From a virus (lineage: Duplodnaviria > Caudoviricetes): a stretch of 64,000 bases of DNA. A program made the position numbers and the translations under genes. This document shows, piece by piece, positions 5,508 to 41,000 of the stretch. A model generated the notes under the pieces. The model had not been told where the DNA came from and did not search any database. It saw nothing but the letters and a program-made list of their open reading frames with translations. Numbering within the stretch: the first letter of the stretch is position 1; every line of letters begins with the position of its first letter. The stretch spans positions 32,001 through 96,000 of IMG/VR virus record IMGVR_UViG_2548876794_000003; one strand, 5' to 3'.

Positions 5508-6485
5508 TTATTCTACCCCTGCTTTCTCTTCCGCTTCGATACGGTTTAATAATTCATTTGCAATACCAGCGTATAGCGTATGGATTGCTTTATCATGAGT
5601 GTCTGTTTCATGATGTGAAATACCAACACGAGAGTAACGTTTTAATCGTTCGCGGTAAGGAACAACAGAGTTAAATAAATTGTGTTCTCCAAATGTTTCA
5701 GCAGCATCTTGTAGGATGCGTTCATCAACTTTACTGTCTCGTTTTAGAATTACAGGCAAGATACCAATAATATCTGCTTCGGCATCATATTCGTCAATAA
5801 GCTCTTGTAAGTAGCCAACGAAGTCTTTCGCACCATCTAATGACCAGTCTTGTGTTTGGAGAACAACAAGAAGATAGTTCGATGCATAAAGCGCTGAATC
5901 GGTAATGATAGAAAGTGTTGGTGGAACATCAATGAATACAAAATCATATGCTCCGCTTACTCTATCTAATAAATCTTTTAAGTGAGTAACGCGATCAGTG
6001 TAATCTGGGAAAACACCTTCTAAATATCGAGAATAGTAACGGAAATCACTATAGCTTGGAATAATATCTAAGTTGTCAATAATTGGTGTGATGATACTTT
6101 GTAGATCTTGGTTTTGAATGGCCGTCATTAACGTGCCATCGTATGTAATGCTATCTACAGGTTCTTCAACCGATTCCTTAACTTGATTAATTTCTTTAAG
6201 AGATAGTTTTACACGAGATGCGTCGAAGTCATCTTCGCCTTCATGTTTAGCACGTTCAGCAGCAATCTTCGCATCTAAAACTTGGTCAAGTTTATCTTGA
6301 ATCATAAGCTCATGTTCATGTAAGTGACGAGTTTTCATAAGAAGTGAAGTTGCATTTGCTTGCGGATCCTGGTCAACAATTAAAACTCGTTTGCCCATTT
6401 TCGCTAATTCGTAAGCAATCATAACGGTGTTGGTAGTCTTGCCAACGCCACCTTTGATGTTACCGAATGTGATAGTAGTAGTCAT
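5508..6485 (-). CDS. parA: ParA/Soj-family partition ATPase
   Basis: Deviant Walker A KGGVGKTT, IVDQDPQANAT, YDFVFIDVPP. Confidence 0.95.
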   Translation of the reverse strand: MTTTITFGNIKGGVGKTTNTVMIAYELAKMGKRVLIVDQDPQANATSLLMKTRHLHEHELMIQDKLDQVLDAKIAAERAKHEGEDDFDASRVKLSLKEINQVKESVEEPVDSITYDGTLMTAIQNQDLQSIITPIIDNLDIIPSYSDFRYYSRYLEGVFPDYTDRVTHLKDLLDRVSGAYDFVFIDVPPTLSIITDSALYASNYLLVVLQTQDWSLDGAKDFVGYLQELIDEYDAEADIIGILPVILKRDSKVDERILQDAAETFGEHNLFNSVVPYRERLKRYSRVGISHHETDTHDKAIHTLYAGIANELLNRIEAEEKAGVE

Positions 6486-25737: not shown

Positions 25738-26106
25738 TTATGCAAATTCATAGCGTTTCCCTTCCTCTGAGTTATTTATTCTTTCACGTACTGCAAGGTC
25801 ACGCGCATGGAAATCTTTAATGGCTAATGTAAGCATGTCGTCGAACGTGCATCCTAACATTCTACGAAGCATTACTAAATCTACGACAATCTCCTTATCC
25901 TCGCCTACTAACTGTAACGAACCATTTTGTAGTCCTGGCGTATTGATTGCTTTAATAACTTGTGCGCATGTAGCATCGACATCTGATTCGGTTACTGAAA
26001 GATTGAATTCGTTTTCTGGTTTGTTTTCGCAGTCAATTGTGAAGAAGTCATCTAGGAAACCGCCGTACGTTGTATCTGGGATTTGATGGTATGTTACTGT
26101 AATCAT
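25738..26106 (-). CDS. Hypothetical protein (likely start MITVTY)
   Basis: GGAGG RBS before ATG 26106. Confidence 0.65.
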   Translation of the reverse strand: MITVTYHQIPDTTYGGFLDDFFTIDCENKPENEFNLSVTESDVDATCAQVIKAINTPGLQNGSLQLVGEDKEIVVDLVMLRRMLGCTFDDMLTLAIKDFHARDLAVRERINNSEEGKRYEFA

Positions 26107-26211
26107 TATTAATTCCTCCAAAGAATAAAGGACGCACACTGTACGCCCTCATAGTTTATTTATATTTAATAGGTAGAAACTTTGTTTTAGGGGGGTGGCC
26201 GTTTTCTCGAC

Positions 26212-26481
26212 CTACCCAAAGAAGGCTTGCATATCTTCAACTGCCTTCATTAACTTACGTGAAGATCGCGCGCGATTTATTACTTCAATACCTGTTGTTA
26301 AATCAATGAAGCGTACATCTTGTTTCGCAAACTTCATCACTTTCTTGATTAGGTCCTTTACTTCGTCTGCGCCTAAGCACACTTGCATTTCTGAATTTGG
26401 TACGCATACGTGATATACGTCTAGCTTTGTACCATGGTTTGAATAGGGGTTAGATGCTTTATAGCCTTTTACTGTAATCAT
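26212..26481 (-). CDS. Hypothetical protein
   Basis: 89 aa, AGGAGG RBS. Confidence 0.7.
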   Translation of the reverse strand: MITVKGYKASNPYSNHGTKLDVYHVCVPNSEMQVCLGADEVKDLIKKVMKFAKQDVRFIDLTTGIEVINRARSSRKLMKAVEDMQAFFG

Positions 26482-26668
26482 TTGATTACCTCCTGTGAGT
26501 TGTGTATTGGTTTGTTGTAGTCAGCAACATGGCCAGTCAGTCACGACCAGCCTAATTAACCGTCCGAAAACGTGTGAGTGCTCCTACCCGCGAAGCGGAG
26601 ATTGTTCCGCAAGCAAAGCACTCGGCAATGTTAGTTCATATAGTGGACTAAGCTATATGCTGTTGATT

Positions 26669-26733
26669 TGGTTTGTCATCATCAGATGCAGGGGAACCAC
26701 CTACTGCATGACTGAGTTGCCCCAGTTTCGACC
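26669..26733 (-). ncRNA. Hammerhead ribozyme (type II), cleavage after C26710
   Basis: GGUC-GAAA-CUGGG gcaa CUCAG-UC^AUGCAG(uagguGGUUccc)CUGCAU-CUGAUGA-U-GAC-aAACCA: intact core, stems I-III, and a loop I/3'-tail pseudoknot UGGUU:AACCA; one extra U before stem II. Confidence 0.85.
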
Positions 26734-26734
26734 A

Positions 26735-26878
26735 TTATTTAAATAGCCCGATGATACGGCGGATTGCACGTTTGGCCATCTTGAAGCGGAACACGTTCCA
26801 CATGATGACGAATGGCATTGCCACAACTCCTAGCATGATTAATTGTTTTTCTTCGCTGTTCATTGGTTGGTTGTTCAT
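26735..26878 (-). CDS. 47-aa single-TM peptide (below ORF-track cutoff)
   Basis: MNNQPMNSEEKQLIMLGVVAMPFVIMWNVFRFKMAKRAIRRIIGLFK; GGAGG RBS. Confidence 0.6.
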   Translation of the reverse strand: MNNQPMNSEEKQLIMLGVVAMPFVIMWNVFRFKMAKRAIRRIIGLFK

Positions 26879-26889
26879 TATATATACCT

Positions 26890-27255
26890 CCAGTCGTCGA
26901 GGGCTCTAGTCCCTAAAAACGACATTCATTTCAATTAGTGCGTTCATCATGGTATGTCGGAGACACACATACGAAAGCACGACAAAGAACCCTAACTTCC
27001 TCGAAGTAGGGCACCGCAGCGTAACACTCCCGCAAGAGTTGTTATTTAAAGTGTGCATTGCACACATCAGCCACATATGAAGTATGGGGAGCTTCGTGCT
27101 TGGAGCCATCGTGGTTTTCGATGGCGACGCGAAGCGGTAACACACCTCTAATGCTTGGGACAAATGTGCTGTGTCCATTAAAGTAACAATCATGTGTGCA
27201 TACGAATGCGATTGTAACCTTAATGCACATAGGGGAGATCCCCTACGCACAATAC
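26890..27255 (-). ncRNA. Candidate structured RNA (about 10 consecutive/nested hairpins)
   Basis: e.g. GUGCGUAGGGG/CCCCUAUGUGC, GCCAUCG/CGAUGGC, AGCACGA/UCGUGCU, GUGUGC/GCACAC; G-U pairs favour the minus strand. Confidence 0.5.
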
Positions 27256-27261
27256 TACTTA

Positions 27262-29541
27262 TTAGAATCCGAATAAATCGTCGTCATCTTCATCTTCATC
27301 ATCTAACTCAGCTAGTAACGCTGCTTTACGATCTTCTAAAGTTTCTGCTGCTTCTACAGTTTCTTCTTCGTTATCAGTTGCATCGTCACCAAATAAATCA
27401 TCATTACTGTCATCAGAAACTTCATCTTCGTCATCTGTAGCGAATAGTTCTTCATCGTCTGCAGAGATTTCGTCAGCTTCTTTTGTTTCTTTCTTGCTAG
27501 ATTTGAAGCGGTCTTTAATCATTGCTTTGTTTTCATCTGATTCAGCGATGATGTCGATGATGTTTTCTTCTGCATCACCTACAACTTGAATCACGATACC
27601 AACGTTTGCGTAACCTTTGTTTTTAGAGAATACTGCTTGTACTAAACGAACTTTCTTCATTGAAGCTGGTTCAGTTGTACCATTGAATACGCCATTACGT
27701 TGTTCATCGTTTGATACATTTGAGCTGTATGTGCTAACAGGTAACACTAATGCTGCTTTATTTTCGTCAGCACTTACATCCCAGATAGCAGGGATTGTTT
27801 GGCGATTCTTGTTATCCATGTTTGTTGTATAAAGCTCTTTGCCAGCTTTGAATGTAGCTAATAATTTAGCAACGTTTTCTGTAGCGTATTTAGTGATGTT
27901 GCCTTCTTCATCTTGTGTGTACATTGAATCTTCTTTGAAGTAAGAGCTATCACCTTGTAAGAATAAGATACCTTCTGGTGCTGTTTCGATAGAGCGTTCA
28001 ATGATTTCTTGTGCTTTATCTTGAATGTTACGTTTTGCTACGATACGGAATTTCTGTTCGCCATCTTCATCTAATTCAATTGATTCTTGAATTTCGAATA
28101 CATATTCACCTTCTGGTAAGAAGTTTACGAAGTATGGGTTGAAGCCTTTTTCGTTGAATGTCACAACGTCACCATTTTGGTATGGTAGTTCCTCAACGTT
28201 TGGCGCGATGAATAGTTCATCTTCTGTTACGAATGAAGCTTTGTAGCCTTCAAGGTCAGTTGATTCGTTGTGGATCATTTCAGCGTATAGTAATTGTTCC
28301 TCTGCGAATAGGGCACTGAAAGCAGATGACATTGTGTTTGATTTGTTATCTTCACCATAACGAAGGTCGCCAATTTGACGAGTGATTAATGCTAATTTCG
28401 CTGCATCTACACCAAGTTGAGTTGCTTTTAAACGTACGGCAGCTTTCATGAATTCAGTTAATGGTTTGTATTTTTTAGATACACGAGCACGTACTTCCAT
28501 TGCTTCGTCAGTATCAGAATCAACTAATTGTAATTCATATTTTGTTTCATCGCGTTGAGCACGTTCAATTGCATCGAATTGAGTTAATGTTGATTGTACA
28601 TATGAAGTGAACTCTGGGTTCTCACTTACTACTGCTGCAGCTTCGATAACCTCTGATTTAATGAATGTTGCTTCACGAGCTGTTTCATCAAGGTCGATTA
28701 ATGCATTGTAGATTTCAGTAAGGCTGTATTTCTTGAACTGTTGTTTCAAGTCAGTGAAGATAGCTTTACCTTTTTTATCGTAGTCTAGTTCATCTCGGTA
28801 GAATAATGATACGCGGCTACCAGCTGTTTCTGCATTATCACTTGCGATAGTTAAGAACTGCTCAGTCATTTTTTCTTTGTATTCCGCTTTCATTTCATCA
28901 GTGAATAGCAGTTGTACTTTTACTGAACCTTTGTTAATAGATGCTACTTTATATGCTTTTGATGGGCTTGCGATTACTGATACTTCGTAAGCTTTTTTGA
29001 ATGCGTCAATGTGACGTTGCATATCAATATCGAATACTAAGTCAACATCTGCTAATAATTCGATGATTGTTTTGTCTGTTGCTGATTTGAAGTCGAAGTG
29101 TTCTAACGTTTTCAAGATAGCTTCACGATCTGCGACGTTAAGTTCTGCTTGCTCTACGATTACACCAGAAGCATTAACGAATGATGTTTTCGTACGTTTG
29201 ATAGCTTTGTATTTAGTGATTGTTGGTACAGTGTTATCTTTGTTGAAGATTTCGCCAAGAACACGACGAGTTTCTTCTGTTGCTACAGTGTATGCTTCTT
29301 CTGTGATGCCACGTAATGCTGCGCCGAATTTTAATGTTTCTGCTGCTGCTTTAAGTGCTTGTGACGCGTTTGCTACGATACCGATACCAGCAACTTTAGC
29401 TGATGTTTGTTTAACCATTGTTAATGCTAAGTTCTCTGCAGCGTAACCGAATTTTGATGCACGTTGAGCTTGAACTTCTTTGATGTTTTTAACGAATGAT
29501 GTAGCTGCGAATTGGTTGAATTTGTTGTTTGTGAATGTCAT
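27262..29541 (-). CDS. Putative C-terminal subunit of split YonO/RdRP-type RNA polymerase, with acidic tail
   Basis: N-terminal GIGIVANASQAL and QRHIDAFKK resemble the post-catalytic 'lG.i.n' and 'avD.pK' motifs of cellular RdRP/YonO; AGGAGG RBS. Confidence 0.6.
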   Translation of the reverse strand: MTFTNNKFNQFAATSFVKNIKEVQAQRASKFGYAAENLALTMVKQTSAKVAGIGIVANASQALKAAAETLKFGAALRGITEEAYTVATEETRRVLGEIFNKDNTVPTITKYKAIKRTKTSFVNASGVIVEQAELNVADREAILKTLEHFDFKSATDKTIIELLADVDLVFDIDMQRHIDAFKKAYEVSVIASPSKAYKVASINKGSVKVQLLFTDEMKAEYKEKMTEQFLTIASDNAETAGSRVSLFYRDELDYDKKGKAIFTDLKQQFKKYSLTEIYNALIDLDETAREATFIKSEVIEAAAVVSENPEFTSYVQSTLTQFDAIERAQRDETKYELQLVDSDTDEAMEVRARVSKKYKPLTEFMKAAVRLKATQLGVDAAKLALITRQIGDLRYGEDNKSNTMSSAFSALFAEEQLLYAEMIHNESTDLEGYKASFVTEDELFIAPNVEELPYQNGDVVTFNEKGFNPYFVNFLPEGEYVFEIQESIELDEDGEQKFRIVAKRNIQDKAQEIIERSIETAPEGILFLQGDSSYFKEDSMYTQDEEGNITKYATENVAKLLATFKAGKELYTTNMDNKNRQTIPAIWDVSADENKAALVLPVSTYSSNVSNDEQRNGVFNGTTEPASMKKVRLVQAVFSKNKGYANVGIVIQVVGDAEENIIDIIAESDENKAMIKDRFKSSKKETKEADEISADDEELFATDDEDEVSDDSNDDLFGDDATDNEEETVEAAETLEDRKAALLAELDDEDEDDDDLFGF

Positions 29542-29700
29542 GATAAATTTCCTCCTATGCTAAACCGTTTTGATTTAGCTCCATAAATAATTTTTTAGTT
29601 TAATGTTTGTTTTATAAATAATAAAAAGCCACACAACTGACAGTCATGCGGCAGGTCCATAATACTGAGTGACAATGAAATGATGTTGCTAAACTTACTA

Positions 29701-32208
29701 TTAAAGTAAATCTGTAGTGCTGTGAGCTTCTGCTTGTGTTGCTGATAATGCTTCGACAATACGTTGGTCAAATACTAATGTAAAACCATCCATATCCCAG
29801 TCAGAACCAGACATGATTAAGTTCAACGTTGGGTGGAATGGAAGCATAACAATACCATCTGATAATGCTTTCATGTACGTTTTAGCGCCTTTCATTAATT
29901 CTTTAACAACTGCTACTGGTAACGTTTTGCCGTCTTTGTTTTTACGACCAAGTAATGCTGCTGCTTTATCTTCGATGCGTGATAAGATTTCATCACGAGA
30001 TACAACGTTTGCAATATGGAAGTCACGAGCACCTGGTTTTGGTGAACGATAGAATACTAATTGCATTGTGATATTTCCTTCTGCATCTACTAGGTCATGC
30101 TTACGAGCATAGCTTTCTGCAGCTGGTGAATACACTTCATCTGTTCCTAATACACCTAGACGGTAAGCCGCTTCTGCGTTACGAAGGTCCTCGAATGCTT
30201 GACGAACAACACGTTTCTTCATTACACCTTTACGAATTTGCATATATGAAGGTTTGATTCCCTCTACTGATTCGTATTTAGCTGTTTGACTTTCAATACC
30301 AGCTTCTACTAAATCGTTGTAATCTTTTAATGCTTTTAAGTGAGCCGCTTCGTGTTGTGTTAAACCTTCTTCATCTGTGTTGAAGTCGATGAATTTAAAA
30401 TTAGCAATATCATCTGGTGTGTTGAATAGTAGAGCAGGTAAGTCGTATAAACCAGACGCATAAGTACCAGCTACAACGTCACGAGATTTGCTATCAAGGT
30501 CACGATTTGTAACGTTGATTACATCTCCTAAAATAGAGTTAACAATAGATGATTCTTTTTCGAATGCGAAACGAGGAGCAGCACTACGCATAATACCTGT
30601 GTAGTAAAGGCTATCTCCTGTTAATTGTGAAGCAGATACTTTAGGATCACGCAATGCTTGATTGCCTTCTTCATCTGTTTCTGTACCGATTGCCGCACTT
30701 AATGCACGACGAGCTGTTTCAGCGCCTAATGTTTCGATTAATAATGGAGCTTGGTCTTGGTTTTCTACAGCCTTAGTTAATGCTTCTTTTTTATCCATAC
30801 CTTCTGCTACGAATTGTTTTGCTAAATCTGCAACACGCATATCTTTCATGTTTTGTACTGCATCTTCTGTTAATAGAGATTGTCCCATTTGACCAGAGTG
30901 ATTCGTTGTTTGTTTAGCAGGGTGAGAAAATGTCATAACTGGCATTGTTGTTTTTGTACCTTCACCGTATGAAACAGGAACTTTCATTTCATCTAGTGTT
31001 GCGATGTAAGTAGGGATAGCTGTTTTATCTACTACTTTTTGAATGATAACTGCGTCATATCCTTTGAAGTATGATTTGATACCATTGAATGCTTTCTTTT
31101 CATTAGCATCTGTTGCACGAGCTTCCATCCATTCTTCACGAGTGATGTATTTAATTTTGTATCCTTGGAATACTAAAGCGTGGATGTATGCTGCAATTGT
31201 TCTAGGCATGAATAGTACGCTTGCTACTTTGTTTACGCCATCGAAACGAGCTTGCATTAATTCACCCACAAAGTGTTGAGGTTTGAACATTGCGCTACCA
31301 CCAATTGAAATTGAAGCATTGTTGATAGATTTCGCTACATATTCAGCACTTACGATTTCGCCACCATCTTTCAGTACGCCATAACGTTTTGTTAAATCAA
31401 TCATTGGAGAAACATCATCTCCATTGAATTTCGCTAAATCTACACCAGCTGTGTGTGTTTGAGATTCACGAGTTGCGATATTGATTAAATCTGCTTTGCT
31501 TGCTTCACGATCTTTGAATTGATCAACGAAGTATTGATTCATGCCGTTTGTTGCAGCATTTGTGATTTCGCGGAATTTTGCTTTACCTTCTTCTGTATCT
31601 GGTAAGGCAATCATTAATAAGCGTTTTACTTTCGCCATACCTGGAGTGTATTGGAATCCGTATAAACGAAGCGCGCCTAATTTATTGAATTCTTCAATTG
31701 TTAATGAAGTGTTGTTTAATAGTGAACGATATGTGTTACGAGAACGAGTGTATAATTCCACTGAACCGTTATCTGCGAATACTACATATAAGCCAGTTTC
31801 TAAAGCGTCTAATGAAGATTTGTCGAATTTAACTTCTAATAAACCGTTAAGGAAGTTCTCAACTTTCATTTCACCAAGATCTGTCATGATTGTTGTTTCT
31901 CTTTGTAATGCTTGACCTTCTAAGCCTTCTACCATTTCGATATAGCGATCTGTAGAAACACCTGTTTTTGTAGATGCTACAGAAGTGCTTACTTGGTGTA
32001 CGTTTTCAAGAACCACCTTGCGAATTGTTACGCCGTCTTTTACTGCGCGGAATACTTCTTCAAGGTACGCTTTGATTTTGTTACCTTTAGCTTTTGGTAA
32101 CAGGTTTACTGCTACAGTTGATAGTTCTGATTTAACGTAGTTTACTTCTGGTAATGCTAATACTGTTGTTGCTGCTTCTGTTACTGTTGCTTGTGTAGAT
32201 GTTTTCAT
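29701..32208 (-). CDS. Two-barrel (DPBB) RNA polymerase, YonO/cellular RdRP-like, catalytic subunit
   Basis: Ordered motifs KDGGEIVS, MQARFDGVNK, NHSGQMGQSL, GLYD, GVLGTDEV, VFYRSP..D, GIVMLP, SGSDWDMDGFTLVFD (DxDxD); start at ATG 32208 after AGGAG. Confidence 0.85.
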   Translation of the reverse strand: MKTSTQATVTEAATTVLALPEVNYVKSELSTVAVNLLPKAKGNKIKAYLEEVFRAVKDGVTIRKVVLENVHQVSTSVASTKTGVSTDRYIEMVEGLEGQALQRETTIMTDLGEMKVENFLNGLLEVKFDKSSLDALETGLYVVFADNGSVELYTRSRNTYRSLLNNTSLTIEEFNKLGALRLYGFQYTPGMAKVKRLLMIALPDTEEGKAKFREITNAATNGMNQYFVDQFKDREASKADLINIATRESQTHTAGVDLAKFNGDDVSPMIDLTKRYGVLKDGGEIVSAEYVAKSINNASISIGGSAMFKPQHFVGELMQARFDGVNKVASVLFMPRTIAAYIHALVFQGYKIKYITREEWMEARATDANEKKAFNGIKSYFKGYDAVIIQKVVDKTAIPTYIATLDEMKVPVSYGEGTKTTMPVMTFSHPAKQTTNHSGQMGQSLLTEDAVQNMKDMRVADLAKQFVAEGMDKKEALTKAVENQDQAPLLIETLGAETARRALSAAIGTETDEEGNQALRDPKVSASQLTGDSLYYTGIMRSAAPRFAFEKESSIVNSILGDVINVTNRDLDSKSRDVVAGTYASGLYDLPALLFNTPDDIANFKFIDFNTDEEGLTQHEAAHLKALKDYNDLVEAGIESQTAKYESVEGIKPSYMQIRKGVMKKRVVRQAFEDLRNAEAAYRLGVLGTDEVYSPAAESYARKHDLVDAEGNITMQLVFYRSPKPGARDFHIANVVSRDEILSRIEDKAAALLGRKNKDGKTLPVAVVKELMKGAKTYMKALSDGIVMLPFHPTLNLIMSGSDWDMDGFTLVFDQRIVEALSATQAEAHSTTDLL

Positions 32209-32493
32209 GATATAATTTCTCCTGTGTAGATGCTTGCCTTGTTGCAAGTCATCTCTGACGCATGCTCAATATGCGTAGATGCTACCTATATGGTTAGTCA
32301 TCGTTTCTCTTATGTAAGTAGTGGTGTTATAACCAGTTACTTACGTTGTAGTCTTCCAAACTACAACTTGTGAGCCTTTTATAAAGACTCGCCATTACAG
32401 AAAAGAGTCCAATCTTTCCTATAATGAATCGTAATAAGTACGTCCAATACTTATTACATAGACGGGTGTTTCCTCACTCGTCTTTTTTTTTAT

Positions 32494-32558
32494 TGCCTTC
32501 CATCTGCGTTTGTACGGGCTTTGGACCGTTATACATTTGTATAGCCGCATTAAAAGCA
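32494..32558 (-). ncRNA. Twister ribozyme (P1 type), cleavage U32552^A32551
   Basis: UGCUUUU^AAUGCGGCUAUAC-aaau-GUAUA-ACGG-UCCAAAGC-CCGU-acaaac-GCA-GAUG-GAAGGCA: P1, P2 (UGC/GCA), P3, P4, pseudoknots GGCU/AGCC and UC/GA. Confidence 0.85.
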
Positions 32559-32585
32559 GGGCTCTATATAGAACCCCTTATATGA

Positions 32586-32819
32586 CTACATGCTCATATA
32601 GTCATTCTTAGCGTATGCAAAGTGTTGTTCAGCAGGGCAGTGGAATAATAACCATTGGTTCTTGCCATCTTTAGATACTGAGATGACACTAGCTACTATG
32701 TCCTTCCCTTGCTTAATCAACTTACATACGACATGATTACCAGCTAATTTGTGTCTGCTGATAATGTTCACCTGTGCTTCTGTGTATTCCTCTTTGCTTA
32801 AATCTACTGACTTTACCAT
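32586..32819 (-). CDS. Hypothetical protein
   Basis: 77 aa, GGGAG RBS. Confidence 0.65.
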   Translation of the reverse strand: MVKSVDLSKEEYTEAQVNIISRHKLAGNHVVCKLIKQGKDIVASVISVSKDGKNQWLLFHCPAEQHFAYAKNDYMSM

Positions 32820-32844
32820 AATGTATCTCTCCCATTCCTATGTG

Positions 32845-33342
32845 TTATTTGTTGTTATGCATGAATAATGGTTTGCGTTTTAATTGATTAATGTAACGTT
32901 CGTTATATGTGATATAGCGATTGCGTAAACGATCTGGAATATAGCGAAGTCCTATACGATACGCTCGCTCTTCTAATTTCAATTGAATCTTTCCTAATGT
33001 TGGCTTGTGCTTATGAACAACCATTGCTGCCATATTGGCTAATTGGTAACGGCATGCTGGATCATTGGCATGTCCTAGTTCATGTGCCATTGCGATAAGG
33101 TAGTTATCTACAATTTCTTTAACGCTAATGACAGCATCATTGCCCATCAAATCAAATAAAAGACGATCACATACATTCATGTAAATGTGACCGCCTTCGA
33201 ATAAACCGATTGCTTTGTAATTGAATAAAGAATCATCTTCTGTAAAGACTACATCTATATCCTTTAATTGCTCTGCGTATACGTTAGTTACATCACGTTG
33301 GATAGCTAAACGCAGGTTGTTCATAATGAATTGCTTGTTCAT
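32845..33342 (-). CDS. HExxH metallopeptidase-like protein (ImmA/IrrE-like)
   Basis: AMAHELGHA...LEERAY; likely start MNKQF after GGGAG. Confidence 0.6.
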   Translation of the reverse strand: MNKQFIMNNLRLAIQRDVTNVYAEQLKDIDVVFTEDDSLFNYKAIGLFEGGHIYMNVCDRLLFDLMGNDAVISVKEIVDNYLIAMAHELGHANDPACRYQLANMAAMVVHKHKPTLGKIQLKLEERAYRIGLRYIPDRLRNRYITYNERYINQLKRKPLFMHNNK

Positions 33343-33682
33343 CTTTAGTCGCTCCCTTTTTATCTTGGGCATAGGTATGCTGTTTCTAGGCAGATTTTGA
33401 TACGTTGTTTAGAAAAGCGAAATGGCATACCCGGGGCTCCAAAATATGTGTTTTTGAGTGTATATATATAATGGGTAGCCACAGGATTTTTTCATTTTTT
33501 CGTTTCCGCATAGGGTTTTTACAATCCGTATATATTTTTTATGTAGTCTTAGTTTCGTTTTAAATTGTCAGACTATTAAAGTCTTTAATGAGGCCTTAAG
33601 AAAAAATTGCGCCATAAGAAAGTTTGTGCAAAAATAGTAGCTGCCTTTCGAGGTACTAATACAAATGAGGGGAGAGATTTTA

Positions 33683-34060
33683 ATGGAAAATGAAAATCAA
33701 GATTATTTCAACGAGGACGACACCACATTCTATGACAATGGTGATGAAATTCTTATTAACAATGAGCAGTCTACATTCGGTGTATGTACAGTAGAGCAAG
33801 TAAAAGTTTCTGAGTCATTCGAAGATGAAGATGGTCGCCAACAATCAATGGAACGATTAGTTGTACAAGGTACTTTGCAAATCAACGACTATCTCGAAGA
33901 TATTGAAGCTATTCAGTTCGGAAATTATTTCGTACGCAACGTGAATGTCATTAGAGAAGTTATTACAAATGCACAAGTATATGTTCACTACGAGTTTGTT
34001 GCTGACGGTGTTACGATTGTTCCACCTCAACCAATCAAGGAAGTGGGGGAAGTAGAATGA
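33683..34060 (+). CDS. Hypothetical acidic protein, first gene of the late arm
   Basis: AGGGGAG RBS before ATG 33683; ATGA overlap with the next gene. Confidence 0.7.
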
Positions 34061-34797
34061 CAAATGTACAAGATGAAGTCGTAGAGGAAGCGGCAGAGGA
34101 AGTTCTACCAGAAGGTTTTGATTTAACCGCCCTGGCAGGAAATGATTCGCCAACTGGTTTAACCCCTGTGGAGCGTAGACTACAGTTTGAAGAAAATGTG
34201 AAGAATATCTGGGGATTTAGCGAGACTGGATGCGAAGCAAAAAGCGCAGCTATGGCCATGCTATCAACCAAAACAGGAATGTATGCACGTATTCCAATTA
34301 CCTGTAAAGGTGAAGGATGTCCGTATGCATCGACTTGTAAGCTGTTGCCGTACGACCTTGCCCCAGTCGGAGAACCTTGTCCTATTGAAGCGGCAGAGAT
34401 TGAGTTACGTTTCAGCGGTTATGCAGAGGACTTCGGCTATCTTGAAAATACAATCAGCTTCACAGACCGCGCCTTAATTAGTGACTTGATTAACCAAGAT
34501 ATTCTACTTGAACGATGTAAGTCGTTGATGGCTGCAGAAGGCGTACCAGTAGTAGATGTCGTAGCTGGAATCAGTGAACAAGGTGAAGAGTTTTATCAAC
34601 CGCAAGTATCAAAACACTGGGAAGCGTACGAGCGAATCATTAAACGCCGTAACGAAATTTACAATTTACTATTAGCTACACGTAAAGACCGTAAAGGCGA
34701 GCAAGATGTTGGTTCAACAGCTATGGATCAAATCATGTCGTTTGTACAAGATGCAGACTACGCAGAAATTGATACACGCCCAGAGAATATTCAATAG
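34057..34797 (+). CDS. Putative terminase small subunit
   Basis: KTGMYA (KHGxYA-like), Cys cluster, helical core ending LLATRKDR; lies upstream of terL. Confidence 0.55.
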
Positions 34798-34809
34798 GAG
34801 GAATACATA

Positions 34810-35154
34810 ATGAAAATTGGACCAACTGGTTCTGATTTAGGAGATTCGATTTTAGCCGCATTTAGTTCTGGCGGTTTTCGAGAAAACATCCTCAATTCAA
34901 ATAAAGCAATTCAAAATGTACATGCTGGCGGTATGCTCGGCGGTATTTCACAATCGGTCAATGCCTATCGAGATACTGGCGACCTTGCAAGATCAATTAA
35001 AGCTGCGCACTCAAATGAAGATGGCGCATTAAACTATGGTCGTATTGCAGGTAGCGTATTGACTGCTGGTGTCGGTTATCGTGCATTAAGTGGTGGTGGT
35101 TTGTATCGTGATAAGGACGGTCAAACAAACATTGCTGGCGTACCGTTTATTTAG
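34810..35154 (+). CDS. Gly-rich hypothetical (putative internal virion/ejection) protein
   Basis: 114 aa, AGGAGG RBS. Confidence 0.65.
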   Translation: MKIGPTGSDLGDSILAAFSSGGFRENILNSNKAIQNVHAGGMLGGISQSVNAYRDTGDLARSIKAAHSNEDGALNYGRIAGSVLTAGVGYRALSGGGLYRDKDGQTNIAGVPFI

Positions 35155-35166
35155 GAGGGGCTGTAA

Positions 35167-36153
35167 ATGGTATTCTCAAACGGTTTCGCAGTAAGCGGAG
35201 CTCTAGCTGGTGGCGCAGTTGGTGGTACGACAGGTATCATCGCCGCCGCCAATAGTGACAACCCAGCAGGCGTCATGGGCTCTGCCGGTGTCGGTTCTGC
35301 AATTGGGGCAACAGTCGGTGGTATCGGAGCAGGTGTATTACCAAACTTCGGTGAAGCTGGCAAGAAAGTCGGTACTGGTTTAGCAAAAGGTTTATTCGTT
35401 CAACCAGCACATGCTTATATGAATAGCTTCAAAACGGTCTCTGGCAACGGGAGTTTGCGAACAGCTGTCGGCAGTTTAGGCATTGGCAGTGGGATGGCAG
35501 GTGCCGGTATTGGTATGTACTTTGGAAACAAATTCACCGGTGGAGATGGTTCTGGTGCCTTGACTGGTGCCGCGATTGGTGGAGCTGCTGGTTTAGCCGC
35601 GCCATTAGCACTTGGAGCAACGTCTGCAGCAGTTGGTTTTGGAGGAATGGCCTTACTAAAAAACTCTGGGCGTATTATGTCTGGAGTTGGTTCAGTAGGG
35701 ATAGGTACAGCGCTAGGTTCAGCCGCAACAGCTGGGCATCTTCTCGCACCAAAAACGTTGAAAGGTACATCTTTCGATCCGCGTACAGGCAACGCGCTTG
35801 CTCGTGGTGTTAAACGCGCGGGCTACTTTGCGACAAATCCAGTACAAAAATATGCAAAGTTCGCAACAGGCGTTGCTGGCAAGATGTTTAAGTATGAGAA
35901 TGCTTCTGCTAAATTGAACAGCAAAGGTAAGATGGTTCATACACCTGGTCGAATGCGCTTGTCCAAATTAGGATTAGGTGTCGGCGCAGTAGGGATGTTA
36001 ATTGCATCTGGTACATCAGCAACAAAAGATTATCTAAATCGTAGTGGTTCTCCAAGTGGGGCATCGACTCCTACACCAAAACCATACAGCTATGTAGATA
36101 ATGGCGGTGCGACAGGTGACTTAGTGTTTGCTATGCACAACAATCGAAATTAA
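35167..36153 (+). CDS. Glycine-zipper hydrophobic protein (putative ejection/membrane protein)
   Basis: Multiple GxxxG segments, 328 aa. Confidence 0.65.
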   Translation: MVFSNGFAVSGALAGGAVGGTTGIIAAANSDNPAGVMGSAGVGSAIGATVGGIGAGVLPNFGEAGKKVGTGLAKGLFVQPAHAYMNSFKTVSGNGSLRTAVGSLGIGSGMAGAGIGMYFGNKFTGGDGSGALTGAAIGGAAGLAAPLALGATSAAVGFGGMALLKNSGRIMSGVGSVGIGTALGSAATAGHLLAPKTLKGTSFDPRTGNALARGVKRAGYFATNPVQKYAKFATGVAGKMFKYENASAKLNSKGKMVHTPGRMRLSKLGLGVGAVGMLIASGTSATKDYLNRSGSPSGASTPTPKPYSYVDNGGATGDLVFAMHNNRN

Positions 36154-36168
36154 CAAGGAGGAGATACG

Positions 36169-36609
36169 ATGCCGGCATTAGGTTCTATCCTTCGATCCGC
36201 TTCTGGGTTCAACAAATTCAAGAACTCAAATAAAGGTCGAATGGTCAGCATAGGTCTTAGTGGATTAGGTTTTGTCCATGAATACAATGAAAATCGCGCA
36301 GAAGGCGATGGTGTTGCAAAGTCTGCCGTAAAAGGTGCGGGTAATGCATTCATTATGGATGCTGTCGGGATGCCTGTGTACTTTGGTGCTATGGCGTTAG
36401 GTGGAGCTGTAAAAGGTGGCGGCGCAATCGCTTCAAGTGTTGCACGAACATCAAGAGAGATGGCGCGTAGCAATCAAGCATTTGCGACGTCAACGTTCGT
36501 TGATACTCAACAAGCCTACACGATGCGACAAGCAGGTATGCAACAAGTGCAATCATCCGAAATGAATACAAAACGGGCATTACTCGGTAATGAAGCGAGG
36601 TATATGTAG
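36169..36609 (+). CDS. Hypothetical protein, paralog A
   Basis: C-terminal NQAF..F.D.QQAYTMRQAGM..LGNEARYM. Confidence 0.75.
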   Translation: MPALGSILRSASGFNKFKNSNKGRMVSIGLSGLGFVHEYNENRAEGDGVAKSAVKGAGNAFIMDAVGMPVYFGAMALGGAVKGGGAIASSVARTSREMARSNQAFATSTFVDTQQAYTMRQAGMQQVQSSEMNTKRALLGNEARYM

Positions 36610-38004: not shown

Positions 38005-41000
38005 ATGCCGAAGAATAAATTATCCGCTATCGAAGTAGAACGATTTAAAGAGATTATGGCAAACCCTGTAATGTGGGCTCGTGCATTCATTCGCACCTTC
38101 AATCCGAAGACGAAAAAGCATGAACCTTGGGTAGCCCGCTGGTATCAAGCAGAAATCTTACTAGATGAATCGGTCAAAAAGGTTGCTAGGTGTGGACGCC
38201 GTACGGGTAAACATTTGCTCTTCATTTGTGAATTGCTGGAAGGTCCAACTCCCTTGGAAGAATCAGCAGCCATGTCCTATAGAAATAGGAAGGGTTCAGA
38301 GACTACGAGCGCAAATGTTTTAATACAACACGAGAGAGGTTATGCCACATGAAATTTGTAGCAGAACGAAAAATCGAAAATCGCGTACTATCAGTAAACA
38401 TTAAATTTGATAGCTACGGTGAAGGCGACTTAACAGATGAACAGGAAAAAGCGTTGGTTAGCGCATTCGGCAATCCTGTCATCTCAGTAGGTGGCGAGTT
38501 TAAAGCGAAGTTTGACGAGAAAGGTCAATTCGTAGAAGATCCAGAAGCAATCGGTGAAGAAGTATCGTTCATTATCGTTAATAAGACGGCAGAGCTTGGC
38601 GAGAATTTCGTAGCGTCATATTCTATTGGGTTAGATAAAGCAGCTGCATACATTAATGAAAAATCTCTATTAAAAGAGGATTACTTACAAGCCGTAGCTC
38701 GCTGTGAGCTTTTCGAAAAAACTATCCAAGATCGCGCGGTTGCCGCAGCTGATAAGTTACAAGCAAAATCAACTGCATTCACAACTGGCTACCCACGCGA
38801 TTTCTTTGCATAAGGAGGACGGATCATGCAACTAAAATACACAAGTAGTATTCGTAAACGCATTATCTGCTTAAATGTAGAGACGACAAACTTCACTACA
38901 AACGAGCGAATCGCCTTAGAAGAATTAGGCGAGCCAGTCATTGAAATGGAGAAAATGTTCAAAGGTAAATATCCTGTGCAATTTTCTAAAACAATTCGTA
39001 CTGGCTTGAAGTTAGCTATCCGCTTCGATGGTCGTGAAAATATTGAAGAAGCATCGCAAGCCGCAAATGAATTTGTAGAGGAATTAGGCGAACTAATCCG
39101 TACAAAAATGAGCGACCTTATGGAAACATACGATGATGTCAATTTTATTTTTGACCGTAAGAATGGATTAACTACCCTATAGATTGTATTAAAAAAGATA
39201 TAGTCCGCCCCTGTTTTTAACAGGGTAGCGAAAACAGAGACCATGTGCGTAAATGGTCTTTACAAGGGGTCCACCCAACCAAACCAACGTATTCTGTATG
39301 TTACGCCATACGAGACGCAAGTACGTTTAATCTTTATGCGTCTAAACGAAATGATTGACGGTAGCCCGCTTCTACAAGAGCAAGTTGCTCGTCGTATCAA
39401 AAACCCATTCATGATTGAATTTAAAAATGGCTCTGCTATCATGGGCTTCACGACAGGTGCTTCGTCTGGTACAGGCGGTGCTTCTATTCGTGGCCAACGT
39501 GCCGATTATATTCACATGGATGAAGTGGATTAACCATATAGTCCACTATAAATAGGGTGAATTGCTGGAAGGTTTGGTGTAAAATCTGCATCAGAATAAT
39601 CAGCAGCCATGCTGTTAGGAGGTTTTATTATGGGAGAACTTATTTTCCTAAATGAACATAATGAAGTAAAAGAAGCGATTGAACACGACAAACAGGACAT
39701 GTTGAATATGCTAGACACAATCCAAAAAGTAGTAGAGGATGGCGAAGCTGTCTCTTTATACATTGGATGTGCGCTAACAGACAATACAAGTATAAGCTGG
39801 TCATCTGGACGTTTTAATTATAACCAACGCGCCAGACTAATTAGTGAATTACATGATGAACAATGTGCTCATGCTTTAGATTTACTTGATGACTAACGGA
39901 GGGTTCAGAGACTATTAATAGCGCCCTACATAGATGATATAGTCCGAAGTGAAAACGTATATGACCGAAGCTGACTTTGATACCGTAACAACAATTGCCG
40001 CTGAACGTAGCGACATCGGTATCTTCTTGTCATCTACTCCAACAGGTGCTCGCTCTAAGTTCTATCAAGCGTGTACCGATAAATCAATGGGCTTCACTGA
40101 ACATTTCCATCCATCAAGCCATAACCCGAACTGGGATGCCACGATGGAAGCTCAATTCAGAGCTCAACTTACGCCGTCTGGTTACACGCATGAAATCGAA
40201 GCAGATTTCGGCGCGCAAGATACCGGTGTATTCAACAAAGATAAGGTCGATAAAGCAATGTCATTCCAAAACTATTACTACAATCCGCTATCTGTTATCC
40301 AGTTGGATCGCGTGAAGCGTGAAGCGGAGAATGGGACCCCGACACCAATTAACAGAGTGTACGATGGTATACCTGTGCCACGAAATACATTCCGTACGAT
40401 GGGCGTCGACTGGGATAAATACCAAGCATCAAGTAGTATATTGATAATGGACTATGACATTGAATCGAAAAAATTCATTGTTGTTAAACGTATTGAAGTA
40501 CCGAAAGCGGAGTATTCATACGATGCAGCAGTTAATTTGATTGTTGAACTAAACGAAATATATAATCCGACATGGATCTACTGTGACCGCGGATCAGGCG
40601 AGTATCAAATAGAACGTCTACATATTATTGGGGAAGAACGTCCAGAGACGGGCCTTAAACATAAAGTGAAGGGCTGGCAGTTTGCTAACAAAATTGACGT
40701 AATGGACCCAGTTACAAAAGAGATGGTTAAAGAGCCAATGAAACCATTCATGGTTAACCAATTGATTATGGCCTTCGAGCGTGAGCAATTGATTCTTTCT
40801 CCATTCGATGAAATCTTACATAAGCAATTAATCGACTATGAAGTAGTGCGCCAGCAACAAAATGGTGCGCCAATTTTCACTTCTGAAAATGAACACTTTG
40901 TCGATACATTAGGTTTGGCTTTCCTTGCATTCGTACTCGAATTTACGGAGCTTACCAATACAATCAAAAAAGTTCGATATGAAATGGCGATGTCATCTAT

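Follow-up and report, generated by a model that had tools for sequence, protein, structure and literature searches.

A phage gene pair that may encode a two-subunit version of the single-chain RdRP/YonO-type RNA polymerase

YonO, encoded by the Bacillus subtilis prophage SPbeta, is a single-chain DNA-dependent RNA polymerase (RNAP) that transcribes the late genes of SPbeta (PMC5467207). Enzymes of the YonO type have been considered as models for the single-chain enzyme from which cellular RNA polymerases descend, and the published signature of the clade is DxDxD (PMC7824862). Another polymerase, gp99 of Bacillus phage 0305phi8-36, was already noted by Iyer et al. Single-chain two-barrel RNAPs are built in a fixed order of N-terminal domain, DPBB-B, connector, DPBB-A, a helix or loop, bridge helix, trigger-loop base and C-terminal clamp element, and the bridge helix and trigger-loop base are kept in all two-barrel RNAP structures compared (PMC10770324). 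Both elements come after the catalytic barrel in all solved single-chain two-barrel polymerases (Chaban 2024). Thermus phage P23-45 has two such enzymes, the tape-measure-fused virion RNAP gp96 and the non-virion RNAP gp64 (PMC10770324). A beta' subunit cut right after DPBB-A is found in cyanobacteria and in the virion and non-virion RNAPs of jumbo phages, for example phiKZ and AR9 (PMC7598289). Here we describe two adjacent open reading frames (ORFs), ORF1 and ORF2, at 27262-32208 on the minus strand of a 64,000-nt window of the Caudoviricetes record IMGVR_UViG_2548876794_000003. The window is the whole stretch of DNA that was analysed and corresponds to bases 32001-96000 of the IMG/VR virus record, which totals 178,960 bp and is estimated to be 78% complete. 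We propose, with a probability of roughly 0.6, that ORF1 and ORF2 jointly encode a two-barrel RNAP of the RdRP/YonO type that is made of two subunits in place of the usual single chain.

ORF1, the proposed large subunit (29701-32208; all coordinates of the pair refer to the minus strand), is identical to database protein P0003, whose cluster comprises 7 member sequences on 12 contigs. The frame spans 29701-32247 and would encode 848 amino acids (aa) if counted from a TTG. The start with a ribosome-binding site (AGGAG, 32219-32223, 10 nt before the ATG) is at 32208, which gives a protein of 835 aa. The motif SGSDWDMDG occupies residues 800-808 and the C-terminal end lies 27 residues beyond it, at a triple stop (TAA-TAG-TAA). 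ORF2, the proposed second subunit (759 aa, 27262-29541), has a ribosome-binding site of its own (AGGAGG, 29551-29556) 9 nt before its ATG at 29541. The two genes are separated by an intergenic gap of 159 nt (29542-29700) with seven in-frame stops, and no intron was found by Rfam in 26000-34000 at E<=1. The initial annotation, which had described an 835-aa product stopping just past SGSDWDMDG, a ribosome-binding site for each gene and a gap with no visible intron core, was correct on all of these counts.

The cut just after the catalytic barrel, together with the partner gene, is conserved in all four known lineages. When ORF1 was searched with phmmer against 1.84 billion cluster representatives of all lengths, the only true relatives recovered were P0004 (877 aa), P0005 (645 aa) and P0007 (618 aa), and this search, for which ORF1 was the only query, found no fused ORF1-ORF2 form. 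Each relative ends 25-45 aa past SGSDWDxD and is succeeded, after 100-150 nt, by a gene of 658-739 aa that is homologous to ORF2; a positional homologue of ORF2 is thus found after every ORF1 homologue. The homology of the second gene is seen between the window and locus L002 (E=2e-4 over 750 aa), between the window and L005 (E=2e-6) and between L003 and L005 (E=2e-12). Because four distant lineages share both the cut and the partner gene, the enzyme is probably two-subunit. The gaps of the four lineages measure 159 (window), 125, 150 and 100 nt and have no common frame relation, which excludes joining by read-through or frameshift. With 3-7 in-frame stops and separate ribosome-binding sites, a joining of ORF1 and ORF2 by intron, read-through, frameshift or bypass was ruled out.

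The loci of the relatives are syntenic with the window. Genes across the divergent junction (33665-36609, plus strand) share 30-58% identity with their counterparts in L003, L004 and L005, whereas identity in the polymerase pair (27262-32208) reaches only about 25%, and this over parts of the length; therefore, the pair evolves far more rapidly than the genes around it. No further relatives came from pattern scans of IMG/VR, JGI metagenomes and GTDB genomes, and word-index protein searches returned nothing beyond the query. Moreover, tblastn against 50,697 phage records yielded no match for ORF1, ORF2 or P0007. A match of P0005 in Thermus phage phiLo was discarded as a chance hit lacking the motif. 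Family hidden Markov models (HMMs) found no homologue of ORF1 or ORF2 in five related cultured phages or among all ORFs of Moorella phage MTATph1.

ORF1 very probably belongs to the RdRP/YonO superfamily of two-barrel polymerases, since two independent lines of evidence, each modest alone, converge on this one rare family, which the initial annotation had named from motifs. The first is the ESM Atlas, in which 24 of the 30 feature neighbours of ORF1 were PF05183 (RdRP) clusters, mostly viral (score 0.92, 180/256 features shared); by the tool's own calibration, this score range is typical of true family members. The second is profile comparison with a YonO-family alignment of 22 sequences, comprising those of SPbeta, Perkons, PMBT24, BUCT082 and TR-TP1, relatives from IMG/VR and gp99. 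By hhalign, residues 675-835 of the ORF1 family aligned to residues 455-560 of the YonO family (score 32.6, P=5.4e-5, probability 67%), matching end to end through G.L..EVY, RSP, G.D.D.D and the hydrophobic strand that follows. As these regions had been picked under the hypothesis, 750 window-by-window comparisons were added. The catalytic pair was the maximum of the 750 window pairs (32.6 and 32.2), all others scoring 24.6 or less and the higher ones overlapping the same regions. The top pairs listed (12 and 15, from two runs) fall on one colinear band, in which ORF1 316-580 corresponds to YonO 255-435 and ORF1 561-756 to YonO 380-535. The same register was ranked first by whole-length hhalign of ORF1 against YonO, at a non-significant score.

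A closer inspection of the catalytic region reveals its two conserved parts. The entry strand of the putative catalytic barrel (30022-30138) carries E691-V-Y and R721-S-P-K-P-G...D729, which are invariant in the family and correspond to GLL..EVY and R492-S-P494 of YonO, the latter through hhalign. In it R721, P723, K724, P725, G726 and D729 are invariant in the four lineages. Further downstream, S800-Q815 (SGSDWDMDGFTLVFDQ, 29764-29811) would form the last barrel strand and the aspartate triad D803/D805/D807, which is aligned to YonO D535/D537/D539 and is predicted to bind Mg. Here the residues invariant in the four lineages are S800, G801, S802, D803, W804, D805, D807, F809, F813, D814 and Q815. 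Residues 801-835 are the best-conserved block of the ORF1 family (47% mean pairwise identity). The extreme C-terminus, D833-L-L (29704-29712), reads DKL, DLI or DLLK in the relatives, with D833 invariant, and is a possible docking tail.

The triad is kept in 4/4 lineages and the tryptophan in the second position of DWDMD is likewise invariant in the family. This motif had been termed deviant from a canonical DxDGD, which overstated the case. All three aspartates are retained, and members of the clade do not always keep the glycine, since the YonO relative of Bacillus phage BUCT082 (L009:2231-5005) reads DFDYD and not DxDGD. With its triad intact, DWDMD is only mildly deviant.

Three blocks upstream of the catalytic region are candidate counterparts of YonO-family motifs. 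The first, R247-Q250 (31459-31470, pattern a-R-x-x-Q-T/S), is invariant in the ORF1 alignment and was compared by eye with K..aY..L..SAS. The next, D281-G282-x-x-I285...A292 (31333-31368), is also invariant and may correspond to DG.G (D249-G250 in YonO); in one of three block scans (window length 8) it was the top-scoring site for YonO DGQG. The last, Q319-x-R321...K327 (31228-31254), could supply the basic residues of DPBB-B (compare R266...K271-G272 of YonO), with Q319 and R321 invariant and the lysine aligned in three of the four sequences and offset by one in the fourth. The order R247-Q250, D281-I285, Q319-K327 is that of the YonO blocks they resemble (K..aY..L..SAS, DG.G and R....KG). 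The three regions were co-aligned by hhalign with the YonO family at a non-significant P=0.31. The initial annotation had read the ordered RdRP/YonO motifs into ORF1; this reading stands for the catalytic region, through the hhalign and Atlas results, and did not gain support for the upstream blocks.

Only 27 residues remain in ORF1 after DPBB-A, and therefore the bridge helix and trigger-loop base are either absent or supplied in trans. From its conserved adjacency and two weak motifs, we consider it somewhat more probable than even that ORF2 is the second subunit and supplies the missing bridge-helix and C-terminal part. The first motif, GIGIVAN (G52-N58, 29368-29388), was compared by eye with iG.isN of YonO (G593, N597). 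The second lies in D171-K183 (DIDMQRHIDAFKK, 28993-29031), the best-conserved block of ORF2, where HIDAFKK (residues 177-183) is a candidate counterpart of I-D625-F-A-K628. Residues 151-200 show the highest conservation (30%) among the well-aligned windows. Invariant in the four lineages are G54, A57, D171, Q175, I178, D179 and K182, and the order of G54/A57 and then D179/K182 is that of the YonO-family invariants G593/N597 and then D625/K628. Since such residues are invariant in four lineages at only 20-30% identity, the pattern in ORF1 and ORF2 goes beyond chance. ORF2 ends in an acidic tail (27265-27534), in which Asp and Glu make up 43% of the last 90 aa and which terminates in DDDDLFGF. 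The tails of the L003 and L005 homologues are likewise 39-42% acidic, with aromatic residues at the end.

Within the intergenic gap, at 29616-29652, an 11-bp hairpin precedes a U-run in the manner of an intrinsic terminator, and a hairpin with a U-rich tail is present in the gap of 4/4 lineages. Between the window and L002 (L002:3320-3360) the hairpin is near-identical, the remaining gap is unalignable and the proteins are about 26% identical. The constraint on the hairpin between these two thus seems stronger than a generic terminator requires. No second copy was found in the genome, nor in IMG/VR by pattern scan.

The phage belongs to the 0305phi8-36-like group of large myoviruses, because its major capsid protein shares 45% identity with that of Moorella phage MTATph1 and 36-41% with those of Bacillus phages KLEB27-3 and 0305phi8-36 (36% for the latter). 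ORF1 and ORF2 are located close to the beginning of a minus-strand block of genes, from which a plus-strand block diverges at about 33.6 kb. Their neighbours are mostly ORFans, and an RNase H is encoded downstream in the same operon. An upstream 9-mer repeat scan of the genes for a promoter motif gave T-rich words only and no candidate. Elsewhere in the leftward block, at 5508-6485 (minus strand), is a ParA/MinD-type ATPase (AAA_31, E=3.5e-39), which suggests plasmid-like partitioning. In the terL region, a group I intron is matched in part at 38223-38317 (plus strand; 34 bits, E=5e-5). Outside the window, a tail-module protein of 2890 aa (G000:C1:100757-109429) carries DADGD at residue 2322 and Q-R-H-P about 35 residues upstream; an 801-aa slice around this DADGD had no Pfam match and no PDB sequence match.

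Matches to self-cleaving ribozymes flank the polymerase genes in several of the loci. In the window, the type-P1 twister ribozyme is matched over its full length at 32496-32556 (minus strand; 55.5 bits, E of about 1e-10 to 1e-9), short of its gathering score of 67.2. This site separates a 77-aa ORF from ORF1, whose start is about 290 nt further downstream. Such a ribozyme could release the polymerase mRNA from the RNA that precedes it. In intergenic gaps downstream of the ORF2 homologue, matches to the Pistol ribozyme (60-61 bits, gathering score 34.5) are found at L004:10912-10983 and L003:11357-11428, and to a type III hammerhead (43 bits, just missing its gathering score of 48.5) at L004:11734-11790 and L003:12179-12235. 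Rfam found no hammerhead 3' of ORF2 in the window (26000-34000, E<=1). Several distinct self-cleaving ribozymes appear to punctuate the operon across the phage group.

A number of results weigh against a two-subunit polymerase. Searches of Pfam, PHROGs and PDB sequences with ORF1, ORF2 and the family profiles gave nothing relevant. PF05183 was absent from all four ORF1 family members at E<=10 and from a six-frame search of the genome, and the YonO-family HMM, run over all ORFs of the genome, did not rank ORF1. After a Bonferroni-style correction for 750 windows, the hhalign P value becomes about 0.04, and whole-length hhalign of the ORF1 or ORF2 family against YonO, the YonO alignment, 21 representatives and gp99 was non-significant. 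Profile comparison with the RdRP family and YonO, which had been named as a check on the initial annotation, thus spoke for it in the region-restricted alignment and not with PF05183, whole-length hhalign or the YonO HMM. A test of conserved-block colinearity was also non-significant, its automatic choice of blocks being swamped by motifs specific to the YonO clade. AlphaFold2 gave ORF1 a mean confidence (pLDDT) of 35.8 from the single sequence and 38.5 from the four-sequence alignment, which is no evidence for a fold, and Foldseek on a model this poor (pLDDT <40) was uninformative, returning meaningless rows. For ORF2, hhalign of the N-terminus against YonO puts the motifs in another register (P=0.13), the best window against the C-terminal half of YonO reaches only P=0.03 in the window scan, the two candidate motifs are 125 aa apart against 32 in YonO, a fourfold spacing, and there was no usable ESM Atlas neighbour. 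GIGIVAN and HIDAFKK, which had been put forward as the motifs that normally follow the catalytic loop, are present where described, and their homology with YonO is not borne out by hhalign. Because of the unsupported register, the lack of an Atlas neighbour and the motif spacing, we keep the subunit role of ORF2 as an inference. Lastly, a terminator-like hairpin between the genes is odd for obligate equimolar subunits.

With these results in mind, four other explanations were considered. ORF1 might be a complete minimal two-barrel polymerase, either without a bridge helix and trigger loop or with an unrecognised one upstream, and ORF2 a non-homologous accessory protein acting in promoter specificity, DNA binding or host interaction. 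Such an arrangement would suit an ORF2 with no significant similarity to any polymerase part and the hairpin that separates the genes in every lineage. Acidic tails with aromatic end residues recall partner-binding or DNA-mimic tails, and the ORF2 tail would fit an accessory of this kind. Nevertheless, we regard a self-sufficient ORF1 as unlikely: the bridge helix and trigger-loop base are universal in the compared structures (PMC10770324) and could hardly be placed in the 27 residues left to ORF1, the invariants G54, A57, D179 and K182 of ORF2 are ordered as G593, N597, D625 and K628 in the YonO family, and the partner gene is present in every lineage. It is improbable that neither protein is a polymerase and that an unrelated, fast-evolving pair carries D.D.D and R.P by coincidence. 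The negative curated profile and sequence searches and the missing fold are what would be expected in that case, and by a rough estimate D.D.D occurs by chance in about one in seven proteins of such size, but two independent methods reach the same rare family, conservation within the ORF1 family peaks at the triad block and the genome position matches that of gp99 in 0305phi8-36.

The pair could also be a two-barrel polymerase with another job, namely RNA-templated RNA synthesis, priming of replication, or defence or counter-defence. The nearest Pfam family is named after eukaryotic RNA-dependent enzymes, an RNase H is encoded in the same operon, and the tail-module protein with DADGD and R-H-P, if it is a polymerase, could cover transcription. 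We hold this to be very improbable, given that YonO, which alone among the phage members has been characterised, transcribes late genes from DNA (PMC5467207). Pseudogene decay of a single-chain gene, or an assembly or frameshift artefact, would account for the interruption and for nothing beyond it. This explanation is effectively refuted by the occurrence of the same cut in four independent assemblies at 20-30% identity, by two open frames with their own starts and ribosome-binding sites across gaps of 100-159 nt that hold many stops and no conserved frame relation, and by the cluster of the window protein (7 sequences, 12 contigs).

We therefore return to the two-subunit enzyme and to how it would work. 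ORF1 would contribute the N-terminal domain, a barrel with basic residues, the connector and the catalytic barrel with D803/D805/D807, and the first 200 or so residues of ORF2 would probably contribute the bridge helix and trigger-loop base; the remaining 500 or so residues of ORF2 and its acidic tail would be specific to this lineage. Both proteins would be expressed early from the leftward block and assemble, via the C-terminal region of ORF1 including the D-L-L tail and the N-terminus of ORF2, into one active centre, after which the enzyme would use DNA as template for the transcription of later phage genes. The intergenic hairpin may serve to adjust the ratio between the two mRNAs, or it may mark a 3' end. 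By analogy with YonO, we infer that the pair serves as the non-virion DNA-dependent RNAP of the phage, made early for later genes.

A wider proposal is more doubtful, and we offer it tentatively. The pair may represent an unrecognised family of obligately two-subunit YonO-type RNAPs, too divergent for Pfam, HMMER or AlphaFold to pick up, in which ORF2 combines the bridge helix with an acidic-tailed specificity or regulatory module of about 500 aa, and which acts alongside a tail-fused virion polymerase in host-independent transcription, from an operon punctuated by self-cleaving ribozymes and a conserved hairpin. If the two-subunit reading is true, the junction after DPBB-A would be a recurrent and tolerated break point, and the pair would offer a minimal system in which to ask what the bridge-helix and clamp part adds in trans. 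The case also shows that standard annotation can miss phage polymerases.

Compared with YonO, the pair has the same order of blocks, EVY, RSP and D.D.D in ORF1 and then the candidate G..(S/A)N and ID..K blocks in ORF2, is likewise phage-encoded, falls very probably in the RdRP clade and is a probable non-virion transcriptase. It differs in that YonO is one chain of 839 aa with DNDGD, whereas here a stop 27 aa past the DWDMD triad is followed by a separate 759-aa gene; the similarity of YonO to ORF1 is below the reach of Pfam or HMMER. Like gp99 (ABS83659.1, 1218 aa; PMC7824862), the pair stands at the head of a leftward block and continues into a long C-terminal extension that includes an acidic stretch, a parallel that counts in favour of the two-subunit reading. 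Unlike the pair, gp99 is a single chain, is recognised by PF05183 at E=1e-20 and has no detectable similarity to ORF1 or ORF2.

YonO-type genes in two pieces can also be found in GenBank, in Clostridium phage c-st (CST179/CST177) and in phi3T and Goe11 (yonO_1/yonO_2). In these interrupted genes, however, the pieces are separated by insertions of 0.4-1.4 kb, some with an ORF. In c-st, CST179 (L011:2326-4002) ends inside the catalytic loop, with NGMDMDK and then a stop. In phi3T and Goe11 (L112 and L113), yonO is broken after residue 625, in IDFAKT, by insertions of 0.4 kb and 1.3 kb, the longer of which contains an ORF. What breaks these genes is probably a mobile intron or insertion, as opposed to a clean division into two genes, and the catalytic motifs of yonO seem to be a target of mobile insertions. 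Insertion as a route to fission has been proposed for jumbo phages (PMC7598289), and an insertion as the evolutionary route to the fission of ORF1 and ORF2 is speculation on our part.

As in P23-45, there would be two distinct two-barrel polymerases in one phage if the tail-module protein, known here from its motifs, is one; gp64 of P23-45 differs from the pair in being a single chain. Lastly, the split beta' subunits resemble the pair in being broken immediately behind the catalytic barrel, DPBB-A, and they are a precedent in its favour. Those enzymes are of the multisubunit type, with the barrels on separate subunits, whereas here both barrels would be on ORF1 and the separate gene would hold only what follows them. 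Taken together, ORF1 and ORF2 would represent the same break, arisen in the single-chain clade.

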